Virus record (IMG/VR): IMGVR_UViG_3300020438_000044
Coordinates: 1 to 57,314 of that record
Source of the DNA: a virus
Taxonomy: Duplodnaviria > Caudoviricetes
DNA: 57,314 nucleotides
Strand: one strand, 5' to 3'
Shown here one piece after another: positions 391-51,488 of this stretch. The translations under genes and the position numbers were made by a program. How positions within the stretch are numbered: the first letter of the stretch is position 1; the number at the start of each line of letters is the position of its first letter. The notes under the pieces were generated by a model. The model was not told the origin of the DNA and searched no databases. It was given only the letters and a program-made list of their open reading frames with translations.

Positions 391-609
391 ATGTATAAAA
401 TAAATTTTTCTAGGCTTATCAATGACTTCGGAGGAGCATCGACAGTGGCTAGGAAGATAAAAAAAGCTAGAACAATACCTTATCAATGGGTAAAGAAAGG
501 CAAATGTTCAACACAAGTTCTGGAGGAACTAAAAAATATAAACCCAACATGCAGTATAGACGATTACTTTGAGGAGGATAATAATGGGAAAGGAAAACGT
601 AAAGCTTAA
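391..609 (+). CDS. Cro-like HTH transcription regulator (72 aa)
   Basis: AAGGAG RBS before ATG 391; 'LINDFGGASTVARKI...IPYQW' Cro-type pattern; first gene after the divergent promoter. Confidence 0.7.
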   Translation: MYKINFSRLINDFGGASTVARKIKKARTIPYQWVKKGKCSTQVLEELKNINPTCSIDDYFEEDNNGKGKRKA

Positions 610-2485
610 ACACGCTTTAGAATACTTAGAAAGAGGTTGGTCTGTTATACCAATAAAACCTCAAGGCAAACGACCTGCTATCAAGTGGCTTGAATATCAA
701 AATCGTTTACCAACAGAAGACGAGGTTACTAATTGGTGGACTCAATGGGAAGACTATGACATCGCACTTGTAACTGGCGAAATCAGTGGCGTTGTTGTTG
801 TCGATTGTGATAATGACAACGCTTACAATGCTTCTCAAGAAGCTAACATGAAGACACCAATCAAGGTGAAGACCAAACGTGGCATTCACTTATACTTTGA
901 ACACCCAAAAGACGGCATACGCAGAGGTCCGAGAGCAGGTGTAAACAGCAGAGGTTCAGACTGGCCCATGATTAATGGCTTAGACTTTAGGGGAGACGGA
1001 AGTTATGCGTTGTTACCACCTTCTAAGAACTATACGTGGGACTATCCAGTAGACGTATTCGATTATGATGAGATGTTTGTCTGGAAAGATTGGAAGCCGT
1101 CTTTAAAAGAACGTATTAACGATGGTGACTTTCATTTTTCAAAGCTAGACTTGAGTTCTGTCAAACCATTTGACCCTAATGAGATGCTTTCTGAATGGGA
1201 TAGAACGGCTAAGTATGTAAAAGAAACCTATCCAACTTCAATGAAGATACCATCTGGCATGAGTAATGGTAGGAATGAACGTGTTATGCGTTACATATCT
1301 GAGTGTATACTGAATGGATACTTTGGCTCTGAGTTAAGAGTCCGTGGTCTTGCGTTTATGAATGAGTTCTTTTTTGAATCTTTAGATGAGCGAGAGTTTG
1401 AAGCAACTGTCTGTTCTATGGAGCAGTCGGAGAAACGTAACCACCCAGAAAGATTCGATGAAGATGGAAACTTTATTGGGCAACCAGTTACTGAGGAGTT
1501 CAAAGACCGACCCAGAAAACTTATCCAGATGAAAGATGCAGACCAACTTATGGAGGAGAGTGCAGGCAAGACGTACTTGATTGAACCTTGGCTTCCTAAG
1601 AATACAATCGTGCAAGTGTATGGTTACAGTGGACATGGTAAGTCTATGTTTGTTCAACATTGTATATCTGCGTTGTGTAGTGGTAGAAAATACTTTGGTT
1701 GTTTCGAATTAGGTAAGCCTGCGAGAGCGTTGTACTTGGATTTTGAAATGGGTATGTCAACAATAGCTAGACGTCTGATTGAAATGAGACAGATGCATGG
1801 AGATACGCAGGACAGATTAAATATCTGGACACCATTTGTAGACAAGAAAGAAATAGACCTAAAGAAAAGAGAGGGACTCGAAGAACTGCAAGCGTGGATA
1901 ACATTCTCAGACCCAGACGTAATCATAATAGACACAATCAGGTCAGCTTATCCTGGCTTAATGGAGAACTCGGCAGACGAATGGAGCAGGGTTAACCAGT
2001 TAGCAGTTAAACTCAGGAACTCAGGACTTGCCGTCATTATGATACACCATTCTAACAAGCCGTCTGAAGGTGGTCTGGGTAGAGAAGCAGGCTCGACTAA
2101 CCAGTTGACTGTACTGGAGACACAGATAAAAGTGACTCAGGTATACAAAGACGAAGACACAGCAAAGCAAAATGCGGCTATCTGGGACGGAAGTTATCAG
2201 CGACCAGTGTTTCCTTTACTGGAGAGCAAGCTACCGAAAGACTATAGATTATATATGGTCATGGAGATTAAGTATGGGAAGGTCAGAGAGTGGACAGACA
2301 TGCATGACAGAGTGCAATGGGTGGGGTTCGGTGGACACAACACGAAAGATGAGCGATGCGTTGTCGCAAGTCAGTCAACAAAACAGAGAGCGAAAGCTAT
2401 GGCACTTGAAGGCAGTGACCCTACACACATTTCGGAGACACTTCAAAGACCCTTACGTCTCATCAATGAGTGGCTAGAACTTTAG
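584..2485 (+). CDS. Bifunctional primase-polymerase (Prim-Pol) fused to a RecA/AAA_25-type helicase
   Basis: N-terminal GWSVIPI..KRP, VVVDCD, RGIHLYF, LDFRGDGSY; GRN primase C-terminal motif; Walker A GYSGHGKS and Walker B IIIDT; GAGGAG RBS before ATG 584. Confidence 0.92.
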   Translation: MGKENVKLKHALEYLERGWSVIPIKPQGKRPAIKWLEYQNRLPTEDEVTNWWTQWEDYDIALVTGEISGVVVVDCDNDNAYNASQEANMKTPIKVKTKRGIHLYFEHPKDGIRRGPRAGVNSRGSDWPMINGLDFRGDGSYALLPPSKNYTWDYPVDVFDYDEMFVWKDWKPSLKERINDGDFHFSKLDLSSVKPFDPNEMLSEWDRTAKYVKETYPTSMKIPSGMSNGRNERVMRYISECILNGYFGSELRVRGLAFMNEFFFESLDEREFEATVCSMEQSEKRNHPERFDEDGNFIGQPVTEEFKDRPRKLIQMKDADQLMEESAGKTYLIEPWLPKNTIVQVYGYSGHGKSMFVQHCISALCSGRKYFGCFELGKPARALYLDFEMGMSTIARRLIEMRQMHGDTQDRLNIWTPFVDKKEIDLKKREGLEELQAWITFSDPDVIIIDTIRSAYPGLMENSADEWSRVNQLAVKLRNSGLAVIMIHHSNKPSEGGLGREAGSTNQLTVLETQIKVTQVYKDEDTAKQNAAIWDGSYQRPVFPLLESKLPKDYRLYMVMEIKYGKVREWTDMHDRVQWVGFGGHNTKDERCVVASQSTKQRAKAMALEGSDPTHISETLQRPLRLINEWLEL

Positions 2486-2608
2486 TTTCTTTCCGTCTAT
2501 GTACACGGCAACAAGTTTTGCGTCAGGAAAATGAACTCTAACTTTGTCCATTAATTCAGCAATGTCTGGGTGTTTCTTACGATTTTCTTCGGCTTGTTGT
2601 TGTGTCAT
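2474..2608 (-). CDS. Small hypothetical protein (44 aa, MTQQQAEENRKKHPDIAELMDKVRVHFPDAK...), below the ORF-track cutoff
   Basis: Translated by hand; protein-like amphipathic sequence; candidate promoter TTGCCA-17-TACAAC at 2721-2693. Confidence 0.6.
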   Translation of the reverse strand: MTQQQAEENRKKHPDIAELMDKVRVHFPDAKLVAVYIDGKKLKF

Positions 2609-2744
2609 TTATTTGTTACAACTACTTAAACTTCGTCTTATTGTTCCTTGTTTCCGTGGTTGGCTACGCCAAACCACGTAAGAACAAACGTAGTTGTAAC
2701 ATATTTTTTTTGATTTGGCAATACCCCTATGTTATTTAATTTAT

Positions 2745-3041
2745 ATGCCAAGAAGAGTATATGTAGATGAAGAAAATATATCATGGCTTAAAGCTAACCA
2801 TAGCAGGTTAAGCCACAAAGAGCTTGCTTCCAGATTTAATTGTTGCGTAGACACAATAAAACGGATACTTGTAAGACATAACTTACAAGACTTTGACGGA
2901 GCTAAGTACCAAGTCAAGAGAGTCAGTGATGAAAAGACATGGACTCGACCATGCATGGACTGTGGAGACACACATGCTAGACCAAAGAACTGGTACTACT
3001 GCGTTAATTGTAGACGTGAAAGGGGATACGAAGAACTATGA
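2745..3041 (+). CDS. HTH plus C4 zinc-ribbon protein, putative transcription regulator
   Basis: LSHKELASRFNCCVDTIKRIL helix-turn-helix; CMDC...CVNC. Confidence 0.65.
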   Translation: MPRRVYVDEENISWLKANHSRLSHKELASRFNCCVDTIKRILVRHNLQDFDGAKYQVKRVSDEKTWTRPCMDCGDTHARPKNWYYCVNCRRERGYEEL

Positions 3042-3427
3042 GTAAACAGAAAAGAAAAGGTGACACTTTCGAAAGAGAACTGGCAACGTACTTTAACGAG
3101 ACAGCAGACATGAACACAGCATATCGTGCGCCACTGTCTGGTGGAGGCAAGGTCAGTTCACATGGTGGAGCAGACTTAATCGGAGTGCCAGACCTATTTG
3201 TCGAAGCCAAGCGTGTAGAGCGTCTGAATTTTATGGACGCAATCAGACAGGCAGAAAGAAATTCACAGGAAACTAACAGCCCAGAGACGCCCATCGTTAT
3301 TAACAGACGAAACAGAATGACAACTGAAGAGAGCATTTGTTTCCTGCGACTAAAAGATTTTATGAAATATTACAACGCTTACCTACAACTAACTGGTAGA
3401 CAGAAAAGCAAAAATTCGGTAGCATAA
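3038..3427 (+). CDS. Holliday junction resolvase (Hjc-like PD-(D/E)XK)
   Basis: KRKGDTFERELA...ADLIG...VEAKR. Confidence 0.85.
   Translation: MSKQKRKGDTFERELATYFNETADMNTAYRAPLSGGGKVSSHGGADLIGVPDLFVEAKRVERLNFMDAIRQAERNSQETNSPETPIVINRRNRMTTEESICFLRLKDFMKYYNAYLQLTGRQKSKNSVA
3396..3425 (+). promoter_or_regulatory. Putative phage late promoter
   Basis: GTAGAC-N18-TAGCAT, same spacing as the copies at 3688, 17098 and 28594. Confidence 0.5.
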
Positions 3428-3449
3428 ACGCATAACTAAGGAGAAGTGT

Positions 3450-3629
3450 ATGGCGTACTCAACTAACAAAGGACTCGTCTTCGGTGCAAGTAAGATGAAT
3501 GGCACAAAGAAAAATGCTTTTCAAGGTTTGCAATTTCGTAATCGTTCACAATTACCATCACAGTTTGGCTCAAGTCTTAACAAACAAAAAGTCAACGTCT
3601 TCGGTGGCAGACTAAGAAAGCAGGTGTAA
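3450..3629 (+). CDS. Small basic protein (59 aa, MAYSTNKGLVFG...)
   Basis: AAGGAG RBS at 3438; translated by hand; no Asp or Glu. Confidence 0.75.
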   Translation: MAYSTNKGLVFGASKMNGTKKNAFQGLQFRNRSQLPSQFGSSLNKQKVNVFGGRLRKQV

Positions 3630-3630
3630 C

Positions 3631-3687
3631 ATGCCAGGACCTATGAAGAAGGGTAAAAAGAAAAAGAAGAAGATAGTCTACAAGTAA
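3631..3687 (+). CDS. Lys-rich micropeptide MPGPMKKGKKKKKKIVYK (18 aa)
   Basis: Starts 1 nt after the previous stop; AGGT upstream. Confidence 0.5.
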   Translation: MPGPMKKGKKKKKKIVYK

Positions 3688-3738
3688 GACGACTGTCTAC
3701 CACAATTAGTATACACTCTCCTTTGAAGGAGAGTGTAT
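3688..3738 (+). promoter_or_regulatory. Putative late promoter overlapping an SD-sequestering hairpin
   Basis: GACGAC-N18-TACACT; perfect stem ATACACTCTCCT/AGGAGAGTGTAT containing the SD. Confidence 0.7.
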
Positions 3739-4222
3739 CATCGAACCAATTAGTATAGCATTAGCCGCGTATTCGGCAATCAAGGCAGGCGTCTCGGCAG
3801 GACGTGAGATGCAAGACCTTGGCAAAGACATCGGAAAACTATTCGATGCCATTGACATTCTGCGTAACGACCACAACAAAAAAAAGAGTAGTCCATTTGC
3901 AGGCTCAGAGAATGAAGAGGCGATGGACACGTTCATCAACAAGAAAAAAGCTGAAGACTTGGAGAACGAACTGCGTCAGATAATCATGGAAACTAGGGGG
4001 TATGATGCTTGGCAAGAACTGCTCAAGCTACGTGCTGAAATCAGACGTAAAAGGAAAGAAGCCGAACGAGCAAGAATGCTCGCACGGCAGAAGTTGTGGG
4101 ATAATTTATGGTTGTACGGAGGTGTCTTTATTATCCTTGTTGGTATCTCCGTCATCTTGTTTTTTGTCGGCACTGCTCTCGTTGCCAGTGGCACTATCAA
4201 TAGTTGGCTCGGCAGAGGCTGA
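3737..4222 (+). CDS. Coiled-coil membrane-anchored protein, probable ATC start
   Basis: Frame of ORF 3809 extends upstream (IEPISIALAAYSAIKAG) to ATC codons 5-8 nt after AAGGAG; C-terminal TM helix. Confidence 0.7.
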   Translation: MIEPISIALAAYSAIKAGVSAGREMQDLGKDIGKLFDAIDILRNDHNKKKSSPFAGSENEEAMDTFINKKKAEDLENELRQIIMETRGYDAWQELLKLRAEIRRKRKEAERARMLARQKLWDNLWLYGGVFIILVGISVILFFVGTALVASGTINSWLGRG

Positions 4223-4447
4223 CTTGCGTGGTACTAATCTTGCCAACGTCTCGAATGTCCACCCACTGTAGTTGAGTGAGTTCCTCAACAAGTCAAGCAC
4301 TTGCATGCCACCTTGTATGTTGTCTATGTTGTCGGCAAATAATACCTCCGTACCGATAAGCTTTCCGTCTTTCTCTACGAGGTACAACTTACCTACCTCA
4401 ATCGTGTTGGGTCTTTTCTCTTCGCCATTGGCTTTTTGTTCTGACAT
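4106..4447 (-). CDS. Hypothetical protein, last gene of the early operon (convergent overlap of ~117 bp with the previous gene)
   Basis: AAGGAGG RBS; directly follows the integrase stop. Confidence 0.65.
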   Translation of the reverse strand: MSEQKANGEEKRPNTIEVGKLYLVEKDGKLIGTEVLFADNIDNIQGGMQVLDLLRNSLNYSGWTFETLARLVPRKSASAEPTIDSATGNESSADKKQDDGDTNKDNKDTSVQP

Positions 4448-5446
4448 TTAGTCCTCCTTTGGTTTGTTAATCAGATTTACTGTATCATGTAAATGAGATG
4501 GTGCAAGATGCGAGTATCTCATTACCATGTCAAGAGAAGTGTGACCAAGTAAGTCAGCAACTGCTCTCAAGCTTGCGCCTTTCTGCACAAGATGTGATGC
4601 AAACGTGTGTCTGCAATCATGGGGTTTAAAGTCTTCAATGTCTGCCTTAGCACATGCTTCACTGAAATACTTGTAAAATATATATTTGTTCCAAGGGTTG
4701 TAGTCGTCTGACCTAAAAACAAAATCATCGTTACCCTTGAACTCACGGAAACCATAGTCACTAACGTAGTCCACAAAGTTAATCGGAACTTTACGTCTGA
4801 GTGTACGTCCACCCTTACGAGAGACGACAACAACGTGGTAAGATTCCAACTCTCTTGCTTGCAGGTTGAATGCCTCGCCAAGTCTGACACCAGTATAAAA
4901 CAAGAACCTCAGTATCGGTTGCAAACTATAGTGAGACAAAGCAATCAACTTGTCTCGCTCTCTCTCCGTCAGCCATCGTACTCGTGCATCATCAGACGTT
5001 GGTTGCTTCAGCCTATACGTTGGCACACTACGACCCATGTCATTGTTATAGTTAATCATCGACTTAATAGACGTCATCTCTCTCGAAACACTATTGTCTT
5101 TGTTGCCTCGTCCCTTGAAATAGTCCATCACCTCGGCTTGTTCCAACGAACAGAGTACTCTGTGACCAAACTCATTCTGAAACAGACGTAAGTTAACCAA
5201 GTCTGTGCTGCCTGGCATGCTGCTTCGGCTGCCCAGGTACAACTTTATTGCGTCTGCCACTGTCGTCTTCGTACCCATGTCAACTTTCTTACCTGCGTCA
5301 CGGAATATTTCTCGCATTCTTTCTTTGGCTAACGTCTTCTGTCCAACAGAATACCCAGTTGACTTACGGATACGATGGGTGTAGCCCATCGTATCTTTAA
5401 CAAATCCATGAGCATACAGATGTCCGTTCCTTTCAACTAACTTCAT
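4448..5446 (-). CDS. int: Tyrosine recombinase / integrase
   Basis: Catalytic R (TGVRLGE), HxxR (HDCRH), LLGH, Y (MRYSHL). Confidence 0.95.
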   Translation of the reverse strand: MKLVERNGHLYAHGFVKDTMGYTHRIRKSTGYSVGQKTLAKERMREIFRDAGKKVDMGTKTTVADAIKLYLGSRSSMPGSTDLVNLRLFQNEFGHRVLCSLEQAEVMDYFKGRGNKDNSVSREMTSIKSMINYNNDMGRSVPTYRLKQPTSDDARVRWLTERERDKLIALSHYSLQPILRFLFYTGVRLGEAFNLQARELESYHVVVVSRKGGRTLRRKVPINFVDYVSDYGFREFKGNDDFVFRSDDYNPWNKYIFYKYFSEACAKADIEDFKPHDCRHTFASHLVQKGASLRAVADLLGHTSLDMVMRYSHLAPSHLHDTVNLINKPKED

Positions 5447-5651
5447 CTGTCTTCTCCTCTAGTATCTGTAATGCCTTTGTCTTCTGTCTTTTGTAGTATT
5501 CCAAAAGACTTTTACAATTCGCATCAAGTTCAAAAGTCTCAATGTAATCTATATGATTTTGAATTTCTTTGAGTGGCATATACTTACCAAACTTCCCTTT
5601 GTGTTGCTGTATTTTATTATGCGACACTCTTCTAAGATTTAACTTGTCCAT
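5433..5651 (-). CDS. Hypothetical protein
   Basis: GGAGG RBS; packed in operon. Confidence 0.65.
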   Translation of the reverse strand: MDKLNLRRVSHNKIQQHKGKFGKYMPLKEIQNHIDYIETFELDANCKSLLEYYKRQKTKALQILEEKTDEVS

Positions 5652-5652
5652 A

Positions 5653-7254
5653 TTATTTACCTCCCATTAGTTTGTATTCCTTGGTAATCGTACCAAGGTT
5701 CTTGTTACCTCTACCATGTTCCTTAACTCTTGTGGTAAATCCTTGTCTCTTAACAGAACCATCGTCATTATATAACGTCTTATACACTCTCGTATGTGCA
5801 TCAACCTCATGATACTTCTTCGGTGTACCAACACCACCTTGACCATTGCCATCAGTTCTGTAAAGATTGACACCCTCATCTTTCGGAAGGTTGACCTTGA
5901 GAACTACGTGGTCGTCCGATGGTATAGTCTCGCCACGTATCATAGTTCTTCTTCCCTTCGTCTCTCTAATCTCTTGAGTAATGTGTCGAGGATAGTTCCA
6001 TATATTCAACAACGACACAAGAAACCTTATGTCTCCCATAGCACCAAGCAATGAACTGAAGTCTGCCTTACTCTTCTGCACCTCATTCCTCACTGGGTCT
6101 ATGTCATGTCCAAGTCCTGCTTTCCACATGACGTGCTTTCTCAGCAGTTGCCAATCCTTATTGTGTTTCTTCTTGCTATTGTGGAAAGACCATATGTTTC
6201 CCCACAATGCTCTATCAACATTCAACGCAGACGGAATCGCTTTGTCTAACGACACATCGTGAGGATACAGTATCTCTTGCATTCTCTTCTTGAGGTCTTC
6301 CTCCTTCATGTACTTCTTACCATAAGTCGTCACATCGAATGGCGAATCTCTGTACTCCTTGATAACCTCATCATGGAAAGGCTCGGCAAAGTTCACGACC
6401 ATTCTCATGTCATGTATATAAACTTTGTTGTTCACATACTTAACTTTGTTGGCATCAATACCACTGTCAAACTCAGCATTGGTAAAGTATATAAAGCTAT
6501 CAAACGTATAAACGGAGTCGCCCAAATACATTCCATCTACGTCCTCGGTCTTGCGTATCCAATAACCAACAGACGGATTGACAATGGAAGACGTGACATC
6601 TCCATTGCTTATACCCCACTTGTCATCAAAGATTTTCTGTTGCCACCACTGCTTTGTTGGCTCGTTCCACTCAACGAAAAGGTTCTCAGATGGTGGCTCT
6701 GCATTACGTAAGGCAATCACTGCTTCCTCAGCCGTAAAGTTTGCACCTCTCCTTACAATGTCCTCCATCAAACTAGCATGAACAACTGCCTTCTTCGCCT
6801 TCATGAACTCCTTCTGATATTTCCTAATGGCTTTCTTACTCTGCTCATTGGCATCGTATATCTGCAACCCTTTGCTTGGTCGCTTGAAAGCATACGTCAC
6901 TTGCTCATGCAAGACTAGCTTGTTCATCTTGGACACAATTTTCTGCACAGTTCTCTCGTCTGCACCGACCTTGCCTTCTGAAAAACCTCTCGCTTTGTTG
7001 TAGGTTATCTTGCCCATCTGTATATCGTCCATCATTATATCTCTAAACGATGGTGGTTCATGCACCACTGGTGGCTCAATGTCAGACGACTTGAACTTGT
7101 GACCAGTGGCTTTGTCTCGTATCATGCTCTCCAAGAAAGGCATCATGTCTGCAAACTTTGGCATATCAAATAAGCCTACCCTCGCAGTAGACTTTTGAAG
7201 CTTTGGTGTCGCAGGCTTTACGAGTGTCCTTTTATTATGTGTCTTCTTTGGCAT
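5653..7254 (-). CDS. Early phage protein of unknown function (533 aa)
   Basis: Long ORF with RBS; C-terminal H-x-V-x-x-H-x-R...H-x-RG...G-x-I-x-K-x-Y pattern. Confidence 0.85.
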   Translation of the reverse strand: MPKKTHNKRTLVKPATPKLQKSTARVGLFDMPKFADMMPFLESMIRDKATGHKFKSSDIEPPVVHEPPSFRDIMMDDIQMGKITYNKARGFSEGKVGADERTVQKIVSKMNKLVLHEQVTYAFKRPSKGLQIYDANEQSKKAIRKYQKEFMKAKKAVVHASLMEDIVRRGANFTAEEAVIALRNAEPPSENLFVEWNEPTKQWWQQKIFDDKWGISNGDVTSSIVNPSVGYWIRKTEDVDGMYLGDSVYTFDSFIYFTNAEFDSGIDANKVKYVNNKVYIHDMRMVVNFAEPFHDEVIKEYRDSPFDVTTYGKKYMKEEDLKKRMQEILYPHDVSLDKAIPSALNVDRALWGNIWSFHNSKKKHNKDWQLLRKHVMWKAGLGHDIDPVRNEVQKSKADFSSLLGAMGDIRFLVSLLNIWNYPRHITQEIRETKGRRTMIRGETIPSDDHVVLKVNLPKDEGVNLYRTDGNGQGGVGTPKKYHEVDAHTRVYKTLYNDDGSVKRQGFTTRVKEHGRGNKNLGTITKEYKLMGGK

Positions 7255-8738: not shown

Positions 8739-8904
8739 TGTCGACCTCCTTACATATTGTTGAAATTTTATCGTAATTGTCTGACTTGAGCCTCGCTTTG
8801 TCTACTCGCTTGCCAACCTCAAACCAAAACCTAAACTGCATACCACGTGAGGGATACAACTTCAGCCAGTGATTATGTATTGTTACTGGTTTCATCATTC
8901 CCAT
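8713..8904 (-). CDS. Hypothetical protein
   Basis: TAATG coupling to the CobT-like gene. Confidence 0.6.
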   Translation of the reverse strand: MGMMKPVTIHNHWLKLYPSRGMQFRFWFEVGKRVDKARLKSDNYDKISTICKEVDNDFKERKI

Positions 8905-10790
8905 TATGCAGACCTCCTATTGATACCAACCTTCGTACCCAATAGCATTTGTGATAGCTCGCCCATCGCACTCTTGGCAAGCTCTTCTACAGTCTCCACT
9001 ACTACGTGGTTCGTGTAGTATCTCTTCACTGACTCATCACAGATGCCGATACCAACAACGTCTGTGTCTTTGTCAGCCTCAATGTTCTTGACAGTGCGTT
9101 CAAGATGTAACCTCAAGGACGTATCATAGTATGTGTCGCATGCAGGACTACCATCAGACAAGACGATTAACACTTTACGTTTCTCGTTCCTATCTTTAAG
9201 TCTGTCATATGCATACTGCACACTCTCGCCATCGACATTGTTGCCACCACTACACTGAGCAATCGTAGATATTGCACCCTTAGCCTCAAACAATCGCTCC
9301 TTGAAGTGCTTGAATATCCACATGTCAATGTTCTCCCAACGTGTATGCATACGTCTGTCTTCCCATTCTTTACTCCTTGATGGCTTGCCAGGCGTGTCTC
9401 CTCTACCACTATTGAACCCAAGTATCTCGTATGCAATACCAGTTCTGTCTACACATTCAGCAATCGCCATCGCACACATCATCGCAGTGTGAACCTTTCG
9501 ACCACCCATAGAACCACTCAAGTCAACAAGCATGGTCAACGCAGTATCCATCTCACGTCTATCAGCTTTCATCTTGAATACATTTGGCTTGCCGTTGAAC
9601 GCAGACGGAAACCTACGACTATCCAATCGTCCGTCCTCCTTGCCAAAGTCCCAATCTCTCTGCGACTTGGCGAACAATGCTCTCTCAATGGAACGTCTCA
9701 TCATGTTCACATCGCCTTGCATCATGTTCAACAACTGGTCGTAATGAGATGCTTGACCTTTCGCAAGTCTCAGATTGCCATACGAATACCGACCATACTT
9801 TCTCGCATCGTCAGTTCTGTGATGCCATCTGTCATGTGCAGTACTCTGTGCAGAGTATGAAGTACCTTTCTTCAAGTCACTGTGTTCTGATTGCGTTCTC
9901 TTCTTGACGTCATCAACTGCGTTCTTGTACTCAAACTCTTCACATACCTCGTCTTCCTCAAAGTCATTCGTGGAAGATTCGTTGCCACCTTGCTCGTTTG
10001 TGAACCTCTCGCTTGGCTTATCGCCCTTGCCTTCGTCCTCGCCATCTCCTTTCTTCTTGCCTTGGCTAACGTCTGAGTCTCCGTCTCCTTTCTTGCCTTT
10101 CTCGCCATCTCCTCCAGTGGGTGTGTCCTCTGGTGGTGGTGTCTTCTTGCGTGGTTCGATGTCACGTATCTCTTTCTCAATCTTCTTGGCAAGTGCAATC
10201 ACGTCCTTTGTATTCTTGCAATCGTCAATCTGCTTAGTCCATCTCTCCACCTTGGCTCTCACGTCTGCGTTTAACAAGTCCATGCACTCCTTGGCAAGGT
10301 TATCGCCATAGTCTTTGCGACCTTCCCATGTGATGGCAACTGGTGCAACCCATGTGAGATTGTCCATGTCTTCCTTGTCAAACCCACCAGTGTTTAATGC
10401 CTCCATGAAGTTGTCATTGACACAGTGAGACGTGGCAATGAGGTTCTGCTTTGAACCTGCATACTCGTCCATTACTTTCTTCTCCAAGTAAATGTCCTCA
10501 CATGCGTTCTGCAATGACATCAACAACTTGTTCCCCTTGTTATCCTTGGCGAACTTGTTGAGTTCTCTGAAGTTTGTGTGACGAATGTGACCACTCTCAT
10601 GGTCAACGTATCCACGCACGATAGATTGGTCATACGTACTTATGTCTTTCTCAAAGTCCATCGCTGGCAGTATGATGTTCTTCCCATCTGTGCAAGCATC
10701 TGTACCTTGGAACTCAACTGATACGTCTTCCTTCCTACCGAATACTGATGAGGTCTTGCGAACCTCGTGTTGAAATAAATCCGATTTCAT
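8904..10790 (-). CDS. CobT-like vWA-domain protein with N-terminal HExxH motif
   Basis: VDHESGH; acidic linker; GRLDSRR; MIDAS LVDLSGSM, NVDGESV, VLIVLSDGSP. Confidence 0.88.
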   Translation of the reverse strand: MKSDLFQHEVRKTSSVFGRKEDVSVEFQGTDACTDGKNIILPAMDFEKDISTYDQSIVRGYVDHESGHIRHTNFRELNKFAKDNKGNKLLMSLQNACEDIYLEKKVMDEYAGSKQNLIATSHCVNDNFMEALNTGGFDKEDMDNLTWVAPVAITWEGRKDYGDNLAKECMDLLNADVRAKVERWTKQIDDCKNTKDVIALAKKIEKEIRDIEPRKKTPPPEDTPTGGDGEKGKKGDGDSDVSQGKKKGDGEDEGKGDKPSERFTNEQGGNESSTNDFEEDEVCEEFEYKNAVDDVKKRTQSEHSDLKKGTSYSAQSTAHDRWHHRTDDARKYGRYSYGNLRLAKGQASHYDQLLNMMQGDVNMMRRSIERALFAKSQRDWDFGKEDGRLDSRRFPSAFNGKPNVFKMKADRREMDTALTMLVDLSGSMGGRKVHTAMMCAMAIAECVDRTGIAYEILGFNSGRGDTPGKPSRSKEWEDRRMHTRWENIDMWIFKHFKERLFEAKGAISTIAQCSGGNNVDGESVQYAYDRLKDRNEKRKVLIVLSDGSPACDTYYDTSLRLHLERTVKNIEADKDTDVVGIGICDESVKRYYTNHVVVETVEELAKSAMGELSQMLLGTKVGINRRSA

Positions 10791-10800
10791 ATTGTCCTCC

Positions 10801-12816
10801 TTATGTAAAGATTCTGTTTACGATACCTTTGAGTACGGCTCTGTCTTGTTGCGTACATCTATCGAGTATCACTGCTTCAAGTGCCTCGTTAGTAGCATCT
10901 CTGCTATTGAAGAGGGTAGTAAATGCCACCATAGTGTCTGCAAGTGAAAGCATACCACGTGGTGATATTGGCTGAAGCACTTTCGATGTAGTAAATGCTT
11001 CAAGATGTTCCTCAACATACTTGTTGAGTTGGTCACGTTGCTCGTCTTTCAACGCAGGAACTTTGTTCTTAATGAGTTGGTCACGTTGAGCAATGTCAAG
11101 GTATGGCACACTGACCCATATGGTAAATCTGTCTATCATCGCCATACTCTGTGGTCTTGCTCCTTGATACATACCGAACTCATCGCCTTGACCTACTGTG
11201 TTACCAGTGGCAATCATTCTGAACTGTGGGTGTGGTTGAACGACACGTCCTCCGTCTTCTGTCAGCATCAATCCGTTACCCTCAAATGCTCTCTGCATCA
11301 CATAAGCAACGTCTGGTCTGATGAAGTCAATTTCGTCAAAGCAACCAATGCATGGTGTGGACATCATCTTTGGCAAGATACCCTCAACGAACTTGGACTC
11401 CGTAGCACCACTTGCACCAGTAGTCAGCACGTCTCTGCCAAGTAAGTCCATACGTGTGACCTCACTATCAAAGTTCACTCTCATGAATGGGAAGAGCAAT
11501 CTCGCACATATCTGCTCAACCAACGTGGTCTTGCCACTACCAGTGTGACCATGAATGTAGATACGTTGATTAGTAACCAACCCATGCAGAACTCTCAGCA
11601 AGCTTGATGGTCTGAACACATATCCGTGGTCAATCGCAGGGACGTAAGGGTGTGGACTATCCCATTCCCACACGAGAATGTCGAAGTCGAACATCTTTTT
11701 ACTCGAAGATGGAATGTCGAATACCTCATGTGCTTTCTTGGTCACTTGTTTGCCACTTGGTATCTCGCCACTCGCTTTGACCTCTGATGGTTTGACAGAC
11801 GTTACAGACATACGTGATAGTCTGCTCTCCATGTCTTTGAGTTGTGCCTCTATGTCATTCCTCACACGTTCACTCTCGTCAAAGTCTCTCGATAGTTGCT
11901 CAATGTTTGCCAACCCAACTGTCTTCAACGTCATGTTCACAAGGTTAAGGCTATCTTTACTCGCCTTCTTTACGATGTCAGACACAGAAGTACGTTTAGA
12001 TGTCGGCTCAGTTTTTAACCCAATAGGTGAACGCATTTGTGCAAGGTGGTAGACAACGTGAGTTACAATGCCATTGAATGGAACACCTTTCTCTGCGAGT
12101 TTCTCTGCTTGTCTCTCCCATTGACCATACTTGTCAGTGAAATCTCTAGCAACCAATGGCTCGTTCTCCATGAGAGCATCTAAGCCGTGCATCTTTGGCT
12201 CGAAGTCATTTGTGTCCCATGTATCGCCAAAGTTCTCGAACACCACTTTCATAGCCACTACGATGTCATTCGTCTCGACTTGGTAGTCTGTCAATAAGCA
12301 CGTCTTTGAGACAATGGCTAACATTGCAGATGCACCGAGTGCATTTGCATCAAAGCAATCAATCTCTTCGGCATCAATGGCAGTCCATGCAAGTGATGAC
12401 CTGCTTTTTGTCCCTGCTATCCAACGTAATCTTTCTTGGTGCAACTCGTCTGACACTTCTTTACCTCTGCCAAAGTCGTATCCACTGTGTGTCTTCGAGT
12501 TTGGAAAGCCATAACGAGTTGGGTCAAGTAGTGCATCAAGCACGTTACTGCAACCATAGTCGTTGAATACGATGTCAAACAACGCAGGAATTGAACAAGC
12601 CATGATGACACCACTCACAGTTGGTTTGTAGTCTGGCATTGTTGCGTGAGTACAACGTCTCTTTAGGTCTGCAATATCCACAGAGTTGTTTTTGTGAAAC
12701 TCTGCAAGTATTGGCGAAGCTAGGCTACGTAAGTGACTTCGCATTTTGCCATAGTCGTATTGGCTGAGGGTGTAAAGTTTGTCCCTCATGTGGTTTACTC
12801 TCTTCTCATCAATCAT
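10801..12816 (-). CDS. CobS-like MoxR-clade AAA+ ATPase with long N-terminal extension
   Basis: GHTGSGKT, VNFDSEVTRMDLLG, FDEID..RPDV, ATGNTVGQGD, DRF; AAGGAGG RBS places the start at 12816. Confidence 0.9.
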   Translation of the reverse strand: MIDEKRVNHMRDKLYTLSQYDYGKMRSHLRSLASPILAEFHKNNSVDIADLKRRCTHATMPDYKPTVSGVIMACSIPALFDIVFNDYGCSNVLDALLDPTRYGFPNSKTHSGYDFGRGKEVSDELHQERLRWIAGTKSRSSLAWTAIDAEEIDCFDANALGASAMLAIVSKTCLLTDYQVETNDIVVAMKVVFENFGDTWDTNDFEPKMHGLDALMENEPLVARDFTDKYGQWERQAEKLAEKGVPFNGIVTHVVYHLAQMRSPIGLKTEPTSKRTSVSDIVKKASKDSLNLVNMTLKTVGLANIEQLSRDFDESERVRNDIEAQLKDMESRLSRMSVTSVKPSEVKASGEIPSGKQVTKKAHEVFDIPSSSKKMFDFDILVWEWDSPHPYVPAIDHGYVFRPSSLLRVLHGLVTNQRIYIHGHTGSGKTTLVEQICARLLFPFMRVNFDSEVTRMDLLGRDVLTTGASGATESKFVEGILPKMMSTPCIGCFDEIDFIRPDVAYVMQRAFEGNGLMLTEDGGRVVQPHPQFRMIATGNTVGQGDEFGMYQGARPQSMAMIDRFTIWVSVPYLDIAQRDQLIKNKVPALKDEQRDQLNKYVEEHLEAFTTSKVLQPISPRGMLSLADTMVAFTTLFNSRDATNEALEAVILDRCTQQDRAVLKGIVNRIFT

Positions 12817-12841
12817 AAAGTCCTCCTTGTGTGTAATGATG

Positions 12842-12870
12842 ATTGTAATCAATGAATGACAGTTTGTCAA
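12842..12870 (-). promoter_or_regulatory. Near-consensus sigma70 promoter driving the CobS/CobT-integrase operon
   Basis: TTGACA-17-TACAAT. Confidence 0.85.
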
Positions 12871-40370: not shown

Positions 40371-43300
40371 ATGGCAGCGAATTTATACAATCAACGTAAC
40401 TTTAAAAATATAGACTTTAGTCTTGATAATGTTTCGATACCTCAAGACCAAGCAGATTATACATCATCTGTAAATCCAACAAAGATACTTAAAGACCCAC
40501 GTTTTCTTCAAGACCTTAGAGATTACTATGAAGAGAAAGAAGGGTATCCAGTAGGTTGGTCAGACGAAGCTTTAGTGGAAGCTTTTTATGGCGACTCAAC
40601 TTGGAGAGAACTCAATACAGTTTCTGCTATAGGTGGTGCATTCGAACCTTGGGGAATGGGAACTGAATCCAGAGAACGTGCAAAAAGAATTGAGTCCGTC
40701 TGGAAACAGCTACCTATGTTTTGGCAGGAAGGTGGAAGAGGAGCCGCAACTGCTCTTCCAGACATTGCAGGCGCATTAATAGCAGACCCACTTAACCTAA
40801 TCCCAGTAGGAGCCGCGGCTAATACAGCAAAGGCTGCAATTATTGGTGGTAAGACTGTTGCAGGTGCAGTCGCACGAGGTGCAGGAAAAGCCGCACTTTA
40901 CGAAGGTGGTATTGCAGGCGCACAAGAAGGCATTGTAAATGCATCTACGCAAGCAAGAGATATACAACTTGGTTTACGAGATGGGTTTAGTAAAACTGAA
41001 CTTGGTTTAGCTACAGGTTTAGGAGTAGGGCTAGGTGGTGTAGTGGGTGGTGGATTAGGTATTCCGTCTGCATTAGCAGGAGCAGCAGTAGGTAGGAACG
41101 TAGTCAATGACTTATTGGCTAAAGGTTTAACAAGAGAACAGATAGCCGCTTTACCTAAAGAATCTTTAGCAGGATACCAAGAAGTATCTGGCATACTAGG
41201 CGCACCACAACAGGCAGACGAAGTTGTTACAGAAACAGCAGAAGAAACAGTACCATCTCCGATAACTATTGACGAATTAATTGCGAAGCAAGAAGAAAAA
41301 ATAACTATCTATAAAGCAAGTGGTGCAGAAGTTGACGAAGAAGAAACATTCTTAGTTTTATTACAAGAAGCCAAAAAATTTGACGAAGTTATTAAACCTA
41401 ACACAGAAGAACTTATAACAAGTTTACAAAAGAAAGGTCCTAGAGGGGTCACAAAAGCAAGAGAAATGCAAAGGTGGCTCAATGAAGTAACCAGAGTAGT
41501 AGAAAATATTAGAAAAGAAGATGGTTCTGACTTTGATGGCGACCTTGACCAAATACTCGCATATCTAAGAGAAAATCCTTATGGTAAGAAACTTGAGCAA
41601 ATAGCATCAGACGATGTTATTCCTGTGACACCAGGTGGTCAGGCAGGCAGACCACGAGGAGACGTAGAATTACAGGGACAACAGGGAGACGCACAGGGAC
41701 AACAGGCACAGCCGCAGACGAATGCTGATACAATAGCAGACGAAGTTATTTCTGAAGCAGAAGCAGCCGATGCTGCTCTTCCTATGGAACAGGAAGTTAT
41801 AGATTACCTTAGAAAGAATGGAATTGAGCCAGACCAAGTTACTCCTAAAAAAGGAGAAACGACAGTCAGCATGAAAAGAGCGCAAAATGTTGTTACTTAT
41901 AGAAAAAGAAAAGCAAAAAACCAAGACCCTACTGTAGAAAGTTCTGAGCAACAAGAGTTTGATAGTTTAGTAAAAGACCTTAGAGCAAAAACAGGGATAG
42001 AAGTAGACGAGCCAACTAGAGTATCTTTGGCTAGAGCTTTTGAGGAAGAAAAAGGTTTAAATAAAAACACTGTTAAGATTGATATTGATGACCTTGCTGA
42101 TGACATGCTTCCAGAAAGAGATTGGATTGCAGACGAGCAACTTAATCCAGATGAAATAAAACAATACAAAAAGATTTTACAAAGATTTAAGAACCAAGCA
42201 GCGAAAGCACCAGAAGACTCTCCACTTAAAATTACAAAGGTAGTGGAAGCAAAAGCAAGAATGGCTTTTAGAAATCAAAGAACAAACATACCAGGCAAAG
42301 CAAGAACTACTGGTGAGTCAATAGAAAGAGCAGGACAAAACGTAGGAGCAGGCAGAGAAGAGTCTGGAAAGATACAAGGAATACTTAAAAAAGGCGAGAC
42401 TATTGGCAGAAGACCTGGCAGAGCAGATAACACTAAATACGCAGACAGAGAAACTGCTTATCTTAAATCTAAAGAAGCAAGAAGAGACTCACCAAACAGG
42501 CTTGTAGCTTTTTATGCAAATCAAAAAACTATGGCAATAGATGAGAATGGTGTAGAAGCACGTGCGCCTATAGGTGCTAAGTTATATGCAGACGGATACA
42601 CAAGAAAAGTATTCTTAAACAAAGAAGCCGCTTTTAAAAGGACAGGATTAAACGCTCCAGACGGAGAAGACACAGCTAGTTTAATTGGTCAAGCTACAAA
42701 AGAAGTTAAAAAAGATAAGCTACCACAAAAACTTACCTCATCAGAAGCAGTTCAAGAGGCTATAGAAAGTGGAGATGCAAAGGAACTATTAAGAGTTATA
42801 CGTGCAGTATCTAATGATACAGTTGATGACCTTCCTGTTAATCAAAGCACAATACAAACTCCAGACTCAGACGTTGCTCCTGTTACTAGAGGCGACAAAA
42901 GACTTATTGTACAAAACAAAAATAATCCTGATGACGTCAGGATTATTTCTAAAAAGCAAGTTGCTGACGGCAAAGGCATTGAAGCAATCATTGGTCAAAA
43001 AGGTGGAGTTGCTTCAGACCCAAGTAACTGGACTGTTAAATATGCTCCTGCCGATACAAAAGTATTTGGAAGAAAACTTAGAGAGTTGTTTGATAGTTTA
43101 CCAGACGAAAAAAACGCAACTGGTGCTGGTAGTAGAGTTGAAGCAGGTGGTGCTACAGGCATAGGTGAGCCTATAGATATAAAAGAAGCATTAAATTTAA
43201 GAACTAGACTAACAGATGAAGACCTTCAAATACTAGGTAGGTTTAAAATTCTAAACAAAAGTTTAAATCCTATGGGTGGTGGCGAAGAAATGTTTGGAGA

Positions 43301-46300
43301 GCTTCCTGCTAGTATTGGGACATCAGTAGTTGATATTGATTATAAGTCTGTTAGAGAAGCGATGCTTTTTTTAAGCATGCAAGCTAAATGGTCTAAAACA
43401 AGGAATGCTCACAAAGAAGTGATAGAGGTATTTAAAGGTCTTATGGATTTAGAAAATAGACTTCTGCCACCAGAAGGCTTTATTGATACTGAAGCAAATA
43501 GATTTGCAACAATTAATAATTTAGAAAAAATATTCTCAGGATATAGCTCAGACGAAATATCAGCAGCTAGAAAATTATTACAAAATCTTGGTGGCGACCC
43601 ATTTATAGGTCCAAGAATAACAAGTATGGGTTCAAATAATTACTATGTAAATAGAGGTTTCTTAGAAGGTCAACCAGAAGGCGTTCCTTCTATAAACATA
43701 GCGCAACCAAGTACTATAGGAGCAGGAAGCGTTCCAATGAACGCAAGGCTTCTACACGAAACAGCACATTGGGCTTTTGATAATATTCTTACAAGTAAAG
43801 ATAAGCTTGAGTTCTTAGAAAAGATGACAGAGTATTACACAGGAAAAGTTGTTGGTGGTGATGGCATACTAAACACAAGGAAGCTAGATGAAGGTTCTTA
43901 CACTAGCCCACTTAAAGAAGAGTTAGCTTCAGACCCAGAAGCAATGGTGTTTGCAAATGCCCTTGAAGGTCCTGGCGAATTTTTTGCAAATCAATTTAGT
44001 GCATGGGCAGGCAGACAAGATGGTCTTGTAATAAAAGACGAGGGATTTTGGAAAAGAATTGCAGGTTATCTCAAAGGAACATTTGATAGATTCTTTTACA
44101 AGACACCAATAGACCCAGAGCTAGAGCCATTCTTTTTAAAGATACTTCCAAACAAAGACGAGATTGGAAAGAGAAGTTTAGGTACACATAAACCTACTAC
44201 AAAAGCAGGCAAAGCAGCAGAAGAAAAACATAATCAAGTAATGCAGATTGTAACTAGGTTACAAGAATTTACAGAAATATACCCATTAGGAACTATGAGT
44301 TCAGAAGGATTTGTAAATCAATTTACTGAAGACCTCTGGTTTCTAGCTAATATAGTTTACAACAAAAAGAAGTCTGGTGAGTTTAAAATGATAAGCCCTT
44401 ATGCTAGAAGGCTTATTAAAGAAAGACTTAAAGACGTAAACGAAATATTTAAAAACGCAAACTCAAGAGGCGAAGATATAAATTGGGTATCATTGGCTAA
44501 TGAGATTGGCAATGCCACTGAAGCAGGAAATGCAGGTGTATCAATCATTGACCCTGCAAAAATGGATACAGTTGCACAGCATCTTACAGAGTTATATTGG
44601 CATGGATACCAAGGTCCAAACTTTAAAGGTGGCGACAGGTTTGCAGTAAGAGACGCAGACGGAAATGTAACTGGCTATAACTATGGCAAGATAAAAGACC
44701 TAGAAAGAACATCAATGACTCGTATGTTTGATTTTGTTCTTGATAGTCTTGAAAGAAACTTTTCAAAAGTTGAAGATACAAACAAGGTAATGAGAAACAC
44801 TCATACAGAACAACCAGACCTTATTGTTTCTAAAAAGAAATCTGAAAGAGGAGCAGGAAAACAGTCTAACTCAACTAAAAGAATATTAAATAAAGAAGAA
44901 GCTGACTACAATGAGACTATTGATACTGCAAAAAAAGAATTTAAAAGTAAAAAGAAAACTCCTAAAGAAAATGCCAAGGTCAATACATCAAGTGCAGGAG
45001 AATTAACAACTAAAACACTACCACAGTTACAAAAAATGTTGCGTGAGCATAGTGGTACAGACTACGGAAGGCAAATAGCAGAACACGTAGTACGTAAACT
45101 TAAAACATCTACAATGTCAGAGAAGGCTTTTGGTAAAAAGATACCTAGAGAATACGTTGAGATGAGCAAGTTTGAACTTGAAGCAGTATTAAATGATGCA
45201 AACTCAAAAGGCGATACAAAAGCTAGAGACTTTGCAGCTAGAGAAATACAAAGACGAGCTAGTAAAAGGGCATCAAAAAAGAAAGGCATGGATACATCAA
45301 AGCATGTTGGCATGATAGCTAGGTCAAATAAAATTGATAACACAATTAAAATAGAAATAGACGATTCTAATGGTATACAAAATTCTGATGGCATACCTGC
45401 AAACGCAAGACCAATGGTTAAAGAAATACTGTCTTACGTTACACATCGTGACCCAGAGAGAGAAATAGCGGCTCGTTCAATTATATACAGAATGCTTAAC
45501 ATAATGGGTAAAGTCTCAAGAAAAGACAGATTTTCAAATCCTATTTTATCAAAAGATATAGCAAAAATTATAGGTAGAGATTACCTTCTAAGAGGTACAG
45601 ACGAATTTTCTGATTTTAAAGGCTCAGATTTTTCTATACTTAGAACATTTGCAAGAACTCTAGGTCAAGAACTTAATGGAGTTCCTGGCGATGAGACAGT
45701 AAGGTTCTTGTCTGGCATGACTCTAAGAGCATCAATGACAAGAGATGAGCTTGACAAAGTAACATTTGCTTTTAACCAACTGACTCCAGACAGACAGAAT
45801 AAAATCATGGACACATATAAAAGAGGAGGTGGTACAAGCCTTGTAGCATCAGGTGCGCCAGACGAACTTGTTCATGAATACGCAATGATTGATTGGTTAG
45901 CAGGTAACTTCCAGAAGATTTACTCATCAGCAGACGATAGAACTTTAATGAACCTTACAGACGAAATGCTTATGGGTGTGGCTTCTAAGCTAGACCAAAG
46001 GTTTACAGAAGGAGATGTGTTTGGAACAGTTACTCAAATGTATCATAGAAATATGGAAGAAGTTGCTTACGTAATAAATGGTCTTGTTAAAAATGATGAG
46101 TTCAAAGATAAATACTTTGGATTAACTAGACTATATGGAGACATGTTTATAAGAAACAGAAGAGGGGGACTGACTTTTCCGATTATGGATAATGAAGTCG
46201 TGCATTCATCACAAGCAGCAGACGCAGGAAGGTCTGCTTGGAAAAATGCTACACAAGAAGAAAGAGTTAAGATTGTAAACTTTACTAAGAATGGTGTAGG

Positions 46301-50577: not shown

Positions 50578-50748
50578 ATGGCAGCGAAAACAAAAAGCAA
50601 AGGCAAGAAAGACGCCTGTTATCACAAGGTCAAGAGAAGTTATTCCGTCTGGCCCTCAGCGTATGCGTCTGGTGCTTTAGTAAAATGTAGAAAGGTTGGC
50701 GCAGCCAACTGGGGTAACAGTAAGAAGAAGAAAAAGAAAAGAGCATAA
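50578..50748 (+). CDS. Basic Cys microprotein (56 aa, KDACYHKVK...WPSAYASGALVKCRK)
   Basis: Translated by hand; TAATG-coupled to the hydroxylase. Confidence 0.8.
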   Translation: MAAKTKSKGKKDACYHKVKRSYSVWPSAYASGALVKCRKVGAANWGNSKKKKKKRA

Positions 50749-51488
50749 TGTTTAATAAAATTAAATTATTATTAACTGACCAGTATTATTTGCAAGAATC
50801 TTTGCAAAAGTTTTTCCAGAACAAGTTTAAATCTAACTCTTCCATAGGAGACAAGCCTTTCTTTAGTAATAAAAGTCTTAGTGCAACTCCAGACTTAGAG
50901 AAAAATTTTACAGATATTCGAGACGAGGCAACAGAAGTACTGAAAAGGTATGATGAGATTGTACCTTTTCAAACGATAAGTCCTGACCAGACGTTTCTAT
51001 CTAACGATGACAGATGGAAAATGTTTTATCTCAAAGCCGTAAACATTAAATTTGAAAAAAACCTAGCTATGATGCCAAAGACTAAAGCTTTATTAGAGCG
51101 TAATCCAAATATTATATCTGCTTATCTTTCTATTCTTGGTCCTAGAAAACATTTACCTCCACATTGTGGACCTTGGGCAGGGGTACTTCGAGCGCATCTT
51201 GGTCTAATTATACCAGACATTAAAAAATGTTTTATTCGTGTGGCAAATAAAAAATACTATTGGAAGAATGGTGAAGTAGTTTTCTTTGACGACACATATG
51301 AGCATGAAGCTTTTAACAATACAGACAAAATACGTGTAGTTTTGTTTATGGACATACTTAGACCAATGAAGTTTCCTTTTAATCTTATAAATAAATTTCT
51401 TATTTTCATTATTCGTTTTTTACCTTACGTAAAAATTCCATTGCAACGTCACAGAGATTGGGAAAAAGTATTTCATAGAGGGTTATAA
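50748..51488 (+). CDS. Aspartyl/asparaginyl beta-hydroxylase-family 2OG-Fe(II) oxygenase (AspH/LpxO-like)
   Basis: WKMFYL, PHCGP...LRAHLGL, FDDTYEHEAFN...RVVLFMD..RP. Confidence 0.9.
   Translation: MFNKIKLLLTDQYYLQESLQKFFQNKFKSNSSIGDKPFFSNKSLSATPDLEKNFTDIRDEATEVLKRYDEIVPFQTISPDQTFLSNDDRWKMFYLKAVNIKFEKNLAMMPKTKALLERNPNIISAYLSILGPRKHLPPHCGPWAGVLRAHLGLIIPDIKKCFIRVANKKYYWKNGEVVFFDDTYEHEAFNNTDKIRVVLFMDILRPMKFPFNLINKFLIFIIRFLPYVKIPLQRHRDWEKVFHRGL

Follow-up and report, generated by a model that had tools for sequence, protein, structure and literature searches.

The stretch of DNA analysed here, referred to below as the window, is a complete virus record of 57,314 nucleotides (nt; IMG/VR record IMGVR_UViG_3300020438_000044, positions 1 to 57,314). 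Our subject is a gene at 3740-4222 whose Shine-Dalgarno (SD) sequence lies in a perfect hairpin and whose reading frame carries ATC at the position where most relatives carry ATG. On the + strand, a replication block (569-3687) encodes a Prim-Pol/AAA_25 protein, a small DNA-binding-like open reading frame (ORF), a PDDEXK/RusA-like resolvase, a 59-aa ORF and an 18-codon micro-ORF, all co-directional with the gene in question, which follows after a 52-nt leader as an open frame ending at 4222 (Table 1). An earlier note, made from the sequence alone, had described the locus as a promoter-gated translational switch with a non-canonical start that keeps a membrane-anchored protein silent until late in infection. 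Our analysis confirms what that note observed and supports part of its interpretation: alignment with homologues strongly supports the ATC start, comparison of leaders lends support to the embedded promoter, and late timing and toxicity remain matters of inference.

Table 1. Features of the gene, its leader and its immediate surroundings, in window coordinates
Feature	Position	Strand	Remarks
Micro-ORF, 18 codons	3631..3687	+	Lysine-rich, MPGPMKKGKKKKKKIVYK; last gene of the replication operon before the leader; read from sequence
Conserved leader motif	3685..3694	+	TAAGACGACT (TAGGACGAC in other clades); ACGACT (3689-3694) at the −35 position; possible regulator site as well
Spacer, 17 nt	3695..3711	+	Holds the in-frame stop TAG (3707-3709)
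Perfect hairpin, 12 bp	3711..3738	+	5′ arm ATACACTCTCCT (3711-3722), loop TTGA (3723-3726), 3′ arm AGGAGAGTGTAT (3727-3738)
−10-like hexamer TACACT	3712..3717	+	17 nt past ACGACT, inside the 5′ arm of the hairpin
Predicted transcription start	3723..3726	+	+1 at about 3724 in the hairpin loop, from promoter geometry (7th nt past the −10 hexamer)
SD sequence AAGGAG	3726..3731	+	8 nt before ATC 3740; five of six bases within the 3′ arm
Proposed initiation codon ATC (AUC)	3740..3742	+	Aligns with the initiator Met of homologues
Coding sequence, 160 codons plus stop	3740..4222	+	Predicted all-helical tail-anchored protein, member of phrog_32327
Internal ATG (Met24)	3809..3811	+	Start chosen by gene callers; AGGA (3799-3802) 6 nt upstream
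C-terminal transmembrane segment (predicted)	4106..4189	+	Residues ~123-150, from hydropathy; within the continuous helix 88-156 of the model
Convergent conserved ORF, 113 aa	4106..4447	-	117-nt overlap with the gene's 3′ end; integrase next (4448-5446)

An inverted-repeat search places two 13-nt arms of 100% complementarity at 3711-3723 and 3726-3738, 2 nt apart, the only fully complementary pair among the 25 longest of the 33 inverted repeats in the window. Folding of the RNA from 3680 to 3770 (91 nt) yields a 12-bp stem with a minimum free energy of −21.6 kcal/mol (z = −2.95), and 1 of 200 shuffled sequences was as stable. The hairpin reported in the earlier note, with AAGGAG buried in it and TACACT in its 5′ arm, is thus recovered both as a stem and as an inverted repeat. 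AAGGAG is invariant in the ten distinct sequences of the window's clade, and in the predicted fold of a long transcript it is base-paired within a stable helix, as in the gate of T4 gene e. On any RNA that carries both arms the hairpin would occlude the SD sequence, and SD-dependent initiation should be negligible, given what is known of structure-limited initiation and given the T4 e case, for which a 100-fold reduction is cited in PMC3014915.

Within the clade, 10 of the 12 base pairs are constant and one shows a compensatory change (A3711-U3738 to G-C); three of five distinct rows lack the loop-closing pair. No position varies at 3712-3721 or 3726-3737 in the ten sequences, whereas 8 of the 12 columns at 3695-3706 do. 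Conservation of the stem alone says little; its contrast with the variable surroundings is more telling. A pattern search for the hairpin in IMG/VR returned six stretches, five of them clade contigs and the sixth (L100) a chance match inside an unrelated coding region. In other clades the zone around the SD sequence is predicted to be paired with a probability of 0.52-0.96 on a long leader versus 0.19-0.55 on a short one, which we treat as a lead only, with alternative pairings in competition. Three further identities for the hairpin or leader were considered and dropped: an RNA thermometer, for which a perfect 12-bp stem is too stable; an N4-type hairpin promoter serving a 3183-aa ORF of the window, which has no RNA polymerase match, the hairpin moreover being the sole one of its kind in the genome; and an attP site or tRNA fragment, nothing similar being visible in the leader by eye.

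The frame of the ORF annotated at 3809..4222 is open back to TAG 3707-3709. Past the SD sequence its codons are TGT 3734, ATC 3737, ATC 3740 and GAA 3743, and the first ATG, GTG or TTG is that at 3809. A search with the extended translation found 90 homologues, 26 of which were aligned with the window. The seven closest protein clusters (P0001-P0007, 135-137 aa), of which P0005-P0007 are more distant at 65-78% identity, have the internal Met as their annotated start, and nearly all others are 145-153 aa long. These longer homologues begin MEPIT, MEPIS or MDPLT and align residue for residue with I-E-P-I-S, read from ATC 3740 in the window; for the family as a whole the N-terminus can be written M-(E/D)-P-(I/L/V)-(T/S). 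The earlier note had proposed looking for homologues that begin M(I)EPIS, and the full-length homologues bear it out.

Start codons were compared in 81 sequences, comprising 80 IMG/VR loci and the window. Immediately before [E/D]P, 59 have ATG, one TTG and one GTG, and 14 more have one extra residue at this point, with ATG (12) or GTG (2) as the preceding codon. A canonical start therefore occupies the family position in 75 of the 81 (ATG 71, GTG 3, TTG 1), and ATC is found only in the window and in L001-L005. When metagenome loci are added, ATC stands at the position of 3740 in all ten distinct clade sequences. The earlier note had named ATC 3737 and ATC 3740 as the only candidates; the former is ACC or ACA in the other nine clade sequences, which leaves 3740, invariant and aligned with the homologues' Met, as the candidate start. 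An in-frame TAA is present at 3725-3727 in nine of the ten, where GGA GAG TGT ACA alone separates that stop from the ATC.

The 22 codons that follow the proposed start are as constrained as the remainder of the gene. Mean pairwise proportions of synonymous (pS) and nonsynonymous (pN) differences over codons 2-23 are 0.095 and 0.021, with a dN/dS of 0.21 that is the same as for codons 24-160. Changes fall 3/0/6 on the three codon positions, six of them synonymous and three conservative (S/T, A/T, S/T; binomial P = 0.013 versus neutrality), and neither an indel nor a stop occurs in the ten clade sequences. By this pattern of substitution the segment is under purifying selection, not decaying. 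A six-frame scan of the window for near-cognate codons behind a strong SD sequence, restricted to frames that run 100 codons or more from stop to stop and in which 15 or more codons precede any canonical start, returned only the site at 3740. The gene thus combines a conserved family N-terminus at a near-cognate codon, the lack of an in-frame canonical start upstream, and an SD sequence at functional spacing, and we regard it as highly probable that the full-length protein starts at AUC 3740.

Such a start would be a weak one. In Escherichia coli reporters, AUC is given as supporting 1-2% of the AUG level in one system and 0.02-3% in others (10.1101/063800), and initiation factor 3 (IF3) is described as disfavouring non-canonical starts (PMC2268962). 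Together, these properties point to a design for very low, conditional expression. A literature search on AUC or ATC start codons gave, among the matches listed, titles mostly on mitochondrial genomes or eukaryotic initiation and none on a phage gene.

The leader also has a promoter-like geometry that recurs across clades. GACGAC is invariant in 15 of 15 aligned leaders, drawn from four leader types that cannot be aligned with one another, and in the ten clade sequences. In clades that share the integrase synteny, TA(A/G)GACGAC directly follows the stop codon of quite different upstream genes. The distance from GACGAC to the start codon is nearly constant (58-65 nt) in leader types that bear an SD sequence; between the motif and that sequence, the window clade is unalignable with the other types. 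A TAnnnT hexamer lies 17-18 nt past ACGA(C/A)N in all 17 tabulated leaders (seven leader types), and in 12 of the 17 it is directly preceded by the TGn of an extended −10 element, where n is G, A, C or T. The hexamer region reads TACACT in the window clade, TG(G/A/C)TAAAAT in L006, L008, L012, L014, L021 and L058, TGTTAAACT in L009, L013 and L015, TATTTT in L063, TGGTATCTT in L016, TGGTAGGTT in L017 and TACAAT in L023. Within the window clade both flanking hexamers are invariant while the spacer between them varies.

Three of these leaders, in L016 (790-830), L017 (1462-1503) and L023 (1462-1503), have no SD sequence, and their ATG lies 5-6 nt past the hexamer, at the expected +1, which would imply leaderless mRNAs. 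In the other leader types the predicted +1 falls 15-22 nt before the start codon, just upstream of the SD sequence and downstream of C/U-rich segments able to pair with it. Applied to the window, the same geometry predicts a transcription start at 3724, in the hairpin loop; an RNA starting there would lack the 5′ arm and, we propose, would have its SD sequence exposed. The earlier note had already placed a promoter in the 5′ arm with +1 near 3724, and the comparison across clades leads to the same nucleotide, whereas TACACT taken alone would be a weak guess. By a rough estimate of our own, TAnnnT would occur by chance at one of two spacings in about 0.04-0.05 of independent leaders, a figure to be read with the knowledge that the argument is post hoc and that these leaders share ancestry. 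For both reasons we grade a promoter in the 5′ arm as likely and no higher. An extended −10 promoter would not need GACGAC to be invariant, which suggests that a regulator also binds this motif and could provide timing.

A search of IMG/VR with a pattern combining promoter and start returned 14 stretches, of which 11 are known loci and three are chance matches (L105, L109 and L115). The short motif AGACGACT is enriched in the window when one mismatch is allowed (69 occurrences versus 37.6 expected) and is too short to interpret. In the assembled contigs of four metatranscriptome runs (examined over 2400-5000), one contig spans 3443-3758 across the hairpin, and contigs of another run cover 3537-3700 and 3739-4096. 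Neither starts nor strand nor level can be read from assembled contigs, and the libraries may contain DNA; we place no interpretation on coverage or gaps. One RNA-library contig of run X3 joins 3428-3474 to 3545-3692 on opposite strands and is probably an assembly artefact.

The product is predicted to be a four-helix, tail-anchored membrane protein with one C-terminal transmembrane segment, in agreement with the membrane anchor claimed earlier. An AlphaFold2 model (mean pLDDT 85.1) has helices at residues 3-19, 24-50, 57-86 and 88-156, the first of them modelled at pLDDT 88-92, and the 19-residue Kyte-Doolittle maximum is 2.85 at residues 129-147, compared with only 1.15 in the N-terminal helix. 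Residues 4-143 of the 160 match the profile of phrog_32327 (E = 8.8e-10), a family whose function is unannotated. Searches of Pfam, NCBIfam, PADLOC and PDB-sequence profiles gave no match for the protein; Foldseek found nothing in the PDB at E <= 0.001 (best E = 0.45), and none of the named ESM Atlas clusters matched. By tblastn, 13 phage records have homologues at 28-37% identity.

It is the synteny of relatives that links this family to lysis. Roseophage CRP-2 has its homologue directly before the small terminase subunit, CRP-701 between the tail fibre and a holin/glycoside hydrolase pair, and Limnohabitans phage DC31 three genes before the endolysin. Of 93 metagenomic loci, 27 encode a homologue of holin type, lysozyme or M15 peptidase no more than 1.5 kb away; the other 66 lack one at that distance. 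Pfam searches with the reference neighbours gave GTA_holin_3TM at 62.1 and 42.9 bits, with a third at 21.0 below the cut-off, Phage_lysozyme at 40.3 bits, and Peptidase_M15_4 at about the cut-off. A lysis-related role is suggested by synteny in relatives only. The window's own lysis cassette is likely to be at the far end of the late operon, where a holin-like gene at 52294-52698 (134 aa, phrog_2524) overlaps a Phage_lysozyme gene at 52695-53135; the N-terminus of the holin-like protein closely resembles that of the neighbour in L075, which was assigned by eye to the GTA-holin-3TM type, Pfam making no call. These contexts give the gene the look of a lysis-module accessory, positioned in this lineage behind early genes; T4 uses the same device to guard gene e in just such a position. 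In L033, some 500 nt upstream of the homologue, a small ORF at 837-1019 carries a lipobox-like LTGC signal and is a candidate o-spanin; this clade has no holin or endolysin match within 1.5 kb, and the candidate hints that lysis association is under-counted.

We propose, as a moderately likely account of the locus, a two-transcript gate in which a hairpin of the T4 e type is combined with a rare AUC start. In this account the product would be a helical, tail-anchored membrane protein of 160 residues, and its gene closes the replication operon of a temperate marine phage, in convergent orientation to the integrase. Since the operon at 569-3687 is co-directional with the gene, and a terminator scan found no terminator-like site on the + strand of 2400-5700, read-through into the gene is plausible. 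On such read-through RNA both arms would be present, the 12-bp hairpin (about −21 kcal/mol) would lock the SD sequence, and the full-length frame would be essentially untranslatable. RNA from the gene's own promoter, composed of the GACGAC motif, the 17-nt spacer and TACACT, would start in the loop at about 3724 without the 5′ arm, leaving the SD sequence exposed. The initiator tRNA would then read AUC 3740 as a near-cognate codon behind a strong SD sequence, and the AUC start would hold the yield to roughly a percent of that of an AUG gene, even with the SD sequence exposed. In sum, firing of the gene's own promoter would be the condition for making a dose-sensitive membrane protein, one associated with lysis in relatives, and little of it would be made even then.

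The precedent is found in the T4 genes e, soc, 49 and I-TevI, in which, as described in PMC3014915, an SD-sequestering hairpin is bypassed by a late promoter located in its 5′ strand; the earlier note's statement of this logic agrees with that source. As in those genes, the SD sequence in the window is predicted to be locked in a helix on read-through transcripts, and the DNA that encodes the 5′ strand holds a promoter-like element whose transcript would be without that strand; the gene sits among earlier genes, and its product family is linked to lysis in relatives. The differences from T4 are also clear. The leader has no T4 late promoter, with TATACACT in the window and TGTACACT in nine of ten clade sequences as against TATAAATA in T4, nor did a PHROGs scan of 36 ORFs turn up a gp55-like sigma factor. 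In their place, the elements have the look of a host-type −35/−10 promoter (with an extended −10 in relatives) together with the invariant GACGAC. The phage is temperate and unrelated to T4, and the start codon of the gene is AUC.

As regards the start codon, the confirmed non-canonical starts of E. coli are given in 10.1101/063800 as only two AUU genes, infC and pcnB. The gene in the window resembles these in having a near-cognate AUN codon behind an SD sequence, with limited yield and sensitivity to IF3 fidelity to be expected, and differs from them in using AUC instead of AUU and in the comparative nature of the evidence. In the lambda S gene, which encodes a small lysis membrane protein, the sdi stem-loop forms at the ribosome-binding site of a dual-start motif whose starts are two codons apart. 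The window likewise has an RNA stem in this place and offers two in-frame codons, AUC 3740 and AUG 3809, as possible starts; unlike those of S, they are 23 codons apart, and the protein has one C-terminal transmembrane segment and is not a recognised holin. The phrog_32327 relatives in CRP-type roseophages and in Limnohabitans phage DC31 differ in another respect, having canonical starts and adjoining genes for the small terminase subunit or for holin or endolysin.

Several observations weigh against the proposed gate. A sigma-70 consensus scan calls no + strand promoter here: TACACT matches TATAAT at four of six positions and lacks the TG, and ACGACT matches TTGACA at three of six. TACACT is also constrained by pairing, and its invariance cannot separate a promoter from a stem. 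Neither of two leader motifs is repeated above chance in the window (12 matches to the arm motif versus 11.0 expected, 10 to the GACGAC motif versus 7.4), which means that these motifs do not form a reusable class of late promoter, and the scan of 36 ORFs gave no phage sigma factor. On these points the earlier promoter claim fares less well than on its geometry. Covariation in the stem is weak, consisting of a single pair, and 96 of 500 shuffles match the observed score. A weak AGGA 6 nt before ATG 3809 could allow a 137-aa protein to be made from any transcript, and all ten clade sequences are at least 84% identical in protein, which makes the clade a young one. Finally, the gene is about 48 kb from the window's holin-like/lysozyme pair and thus outside the lysis cassette.

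A serious rival keeps the same two-transcript gate and takes the private promoter to be a prophage promoter. The gene would then be part of a moron-like cassette next to the integrase, expressed at a low level in lysogeny for a purpose such as superinfection exclusion or interference with the lysis of a related phage, and the hairpin would insulate it from lytic read-through. The position of the gene at the operon end beside a convergent integrase in many clades fits this possibility, as does the start of the conserved unit right after the stop codon of unrelated upstream genes. Relatives carry an extended −10 element of host type, for which no phage factor is required, and three of the leader types are apparently leaderless; the lambda cI transcript from P_RM is leaderless too. 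The genome moreover appears to resemble those of CRP-810-type phages, described as temperate in PMC11288001; it encodes a Prim-Pol with AAA_25, a Cas4-domain exonuclease, a Sak4-like ATPase and an integrase, and its DNA similarity to CRP-810 is limited to 136 nt at 71%. Homologues elsewhere are found in lysis cassettes or adjoining the small terminase subunit, that is, among late genes, and the protein matches no PADLOC defence family. On balance we consider a lysogenic promoter possible but rather doubtful.

The gate could also do without an internal promoter, the hairpin and AUC codon acting as constitutive attenuators on the operon transcript and trace amounts of protein arising from rare opening of the stem or from ribosomes finishing the micro-ORF 52 nt upstream. 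The weakness of the window's promoter-like elements, uncalled by the consensus scan, would be expected in this case. The micro-ORF itself looks real: in an alignment of the window with L001-L005, all four nucleotide differences are synonymous, and for this reason it is probably translated. Its peptide is found in eight clade sequences, identical in seven and with a different C-terminal end in L089. Against this, a perfect local stem of −21 kcal/mol together with a start codon of 1-2% efficiency would all but abolish expression of a gene that purifying selection maintains. A ribosome terminating at the micro-ORF stop (3685-3687) would still be 23 nt short of the stem and could not melt it at that distance, and the GACGAC-17/18-TAnnnT geometry and the leaderless relatives would go unexplained. 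We think this account unlikely.

Less probable again is that translation in this clade starts only at ATG 3809, giving 137 aa, and that the 23 codons upstream are a remnant recently disabled by an ATG-to-ATC mutation, the hairpin being unrelated to translation of the gene. The annotation of all seven closest clusters from Met24, the AGGA upstream of that codon and the youth of the clade are what such a history would leave. A disabled remnant would not be expected to keep the dN/dS of the rest of the gene with no second-position change, indel or stop in ten sequences, nor a perfect AAGGAG 8 nt before the ATC in every one of them, and helix 1, which these codons encode, is a confident part of the modelled fold. 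A role for the hairpin as an intrinsic terminator, or in the stability or processing of RNA, whether of the upstream or of the convergent minus-strand operon, is very improbable: a stable stem at a gene-block boundary, palindromic and able to fold on both strands, might serve such a purpose, but no U-tract follows it on either strand, a terminator scan makes no call, Rfam has no match in 3300-4300, and the overlap with the SD sequence is exact.

An elaboration of the two-transcript gate, which we offer as a speculation with little likelihood of being right in full, would make the locus a three-layer timer, with a private promoter in the anti-SD arm, full occlusion of the SD sequence on all other transcripts and an AUC start dependent on IF3 fidelity. 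Synthesis of the 160-aa protein would then report the translational state of the host late in infection, and the 137-aa form from Met24, which lacks helix 1 and could be made from any transcript, would act as its antagonist, so that one frame would supply a pair resembling holin and antiholin.

To our knowledge, natural genes that start with AUC are almost undocumented in bacteria and phages. The present case is unusually well supported by comparison, with a canonical start at the same position in 75 relatives, ATC fixed in the whole clade, a perfect SD sequence and an in-frame stop that fences the frame. The promoter-in-hairpin-arm of the T4 lysozyme type seems to be matched in temperate marine phages of an unrelated, globally distributed family, in which sister lineages appear to reach the same end by way of leaderless mRNA. 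For annotation, it would follow that gene callers clip 23 residues from the database copies P0001-P0007. The region may also serve as a compact cassette for studying near-cognate initiation and transcript-dependent translation.

Upstream of the leader, the micro-ORF begins 1 nt past the stop of the 59-aa ORF, and its own stop, TAA 3685-3687, abuts the conserved leader motif. In other clades the gene upstream of the homologue often has a similar K-rich tail. Downstream, the convergent overlap at 4106-4222 is kept across the whole clade (83-89% identity) and is absent in more distant clades; convergent transcription of the integrase operon would run antisense through the gene. A minus-strand sigma-70-like match at 3752-3779 (TTGCCG, 16 nt, TATACT, with TG) lies within the gene's opening codons and faces left across the hairpin, a consensus match only, one of seven such sites in the region versus 5.7 expected.

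A scan of GTDB genomes matched no relative and so yielded neither a host nor a prophage. No tRNA gene was found in the window, and no Rfam family matched in 3300-4300. The 3183-aa ORF at 40371-49922 has no PHROG match, and its sole Pfam match is an ART-PolyVal ADP-ribosyltransferase domain at residues 1982-2039 (37 bits). Between this giant ORF and the lysis genes, 50748-51488 encodes a protein with an aspartyl/asparaginyl beta-hydroxylase domain (Pfam, 161.7 bits). On the minus strand, at 8904-12870, two large ORFs match PHROGs of the CobT-like and porphyrin-biosynthesis/ATPase (CobS-like) types and are apparent auxiliary metabolic genes in the integrase-side operon.

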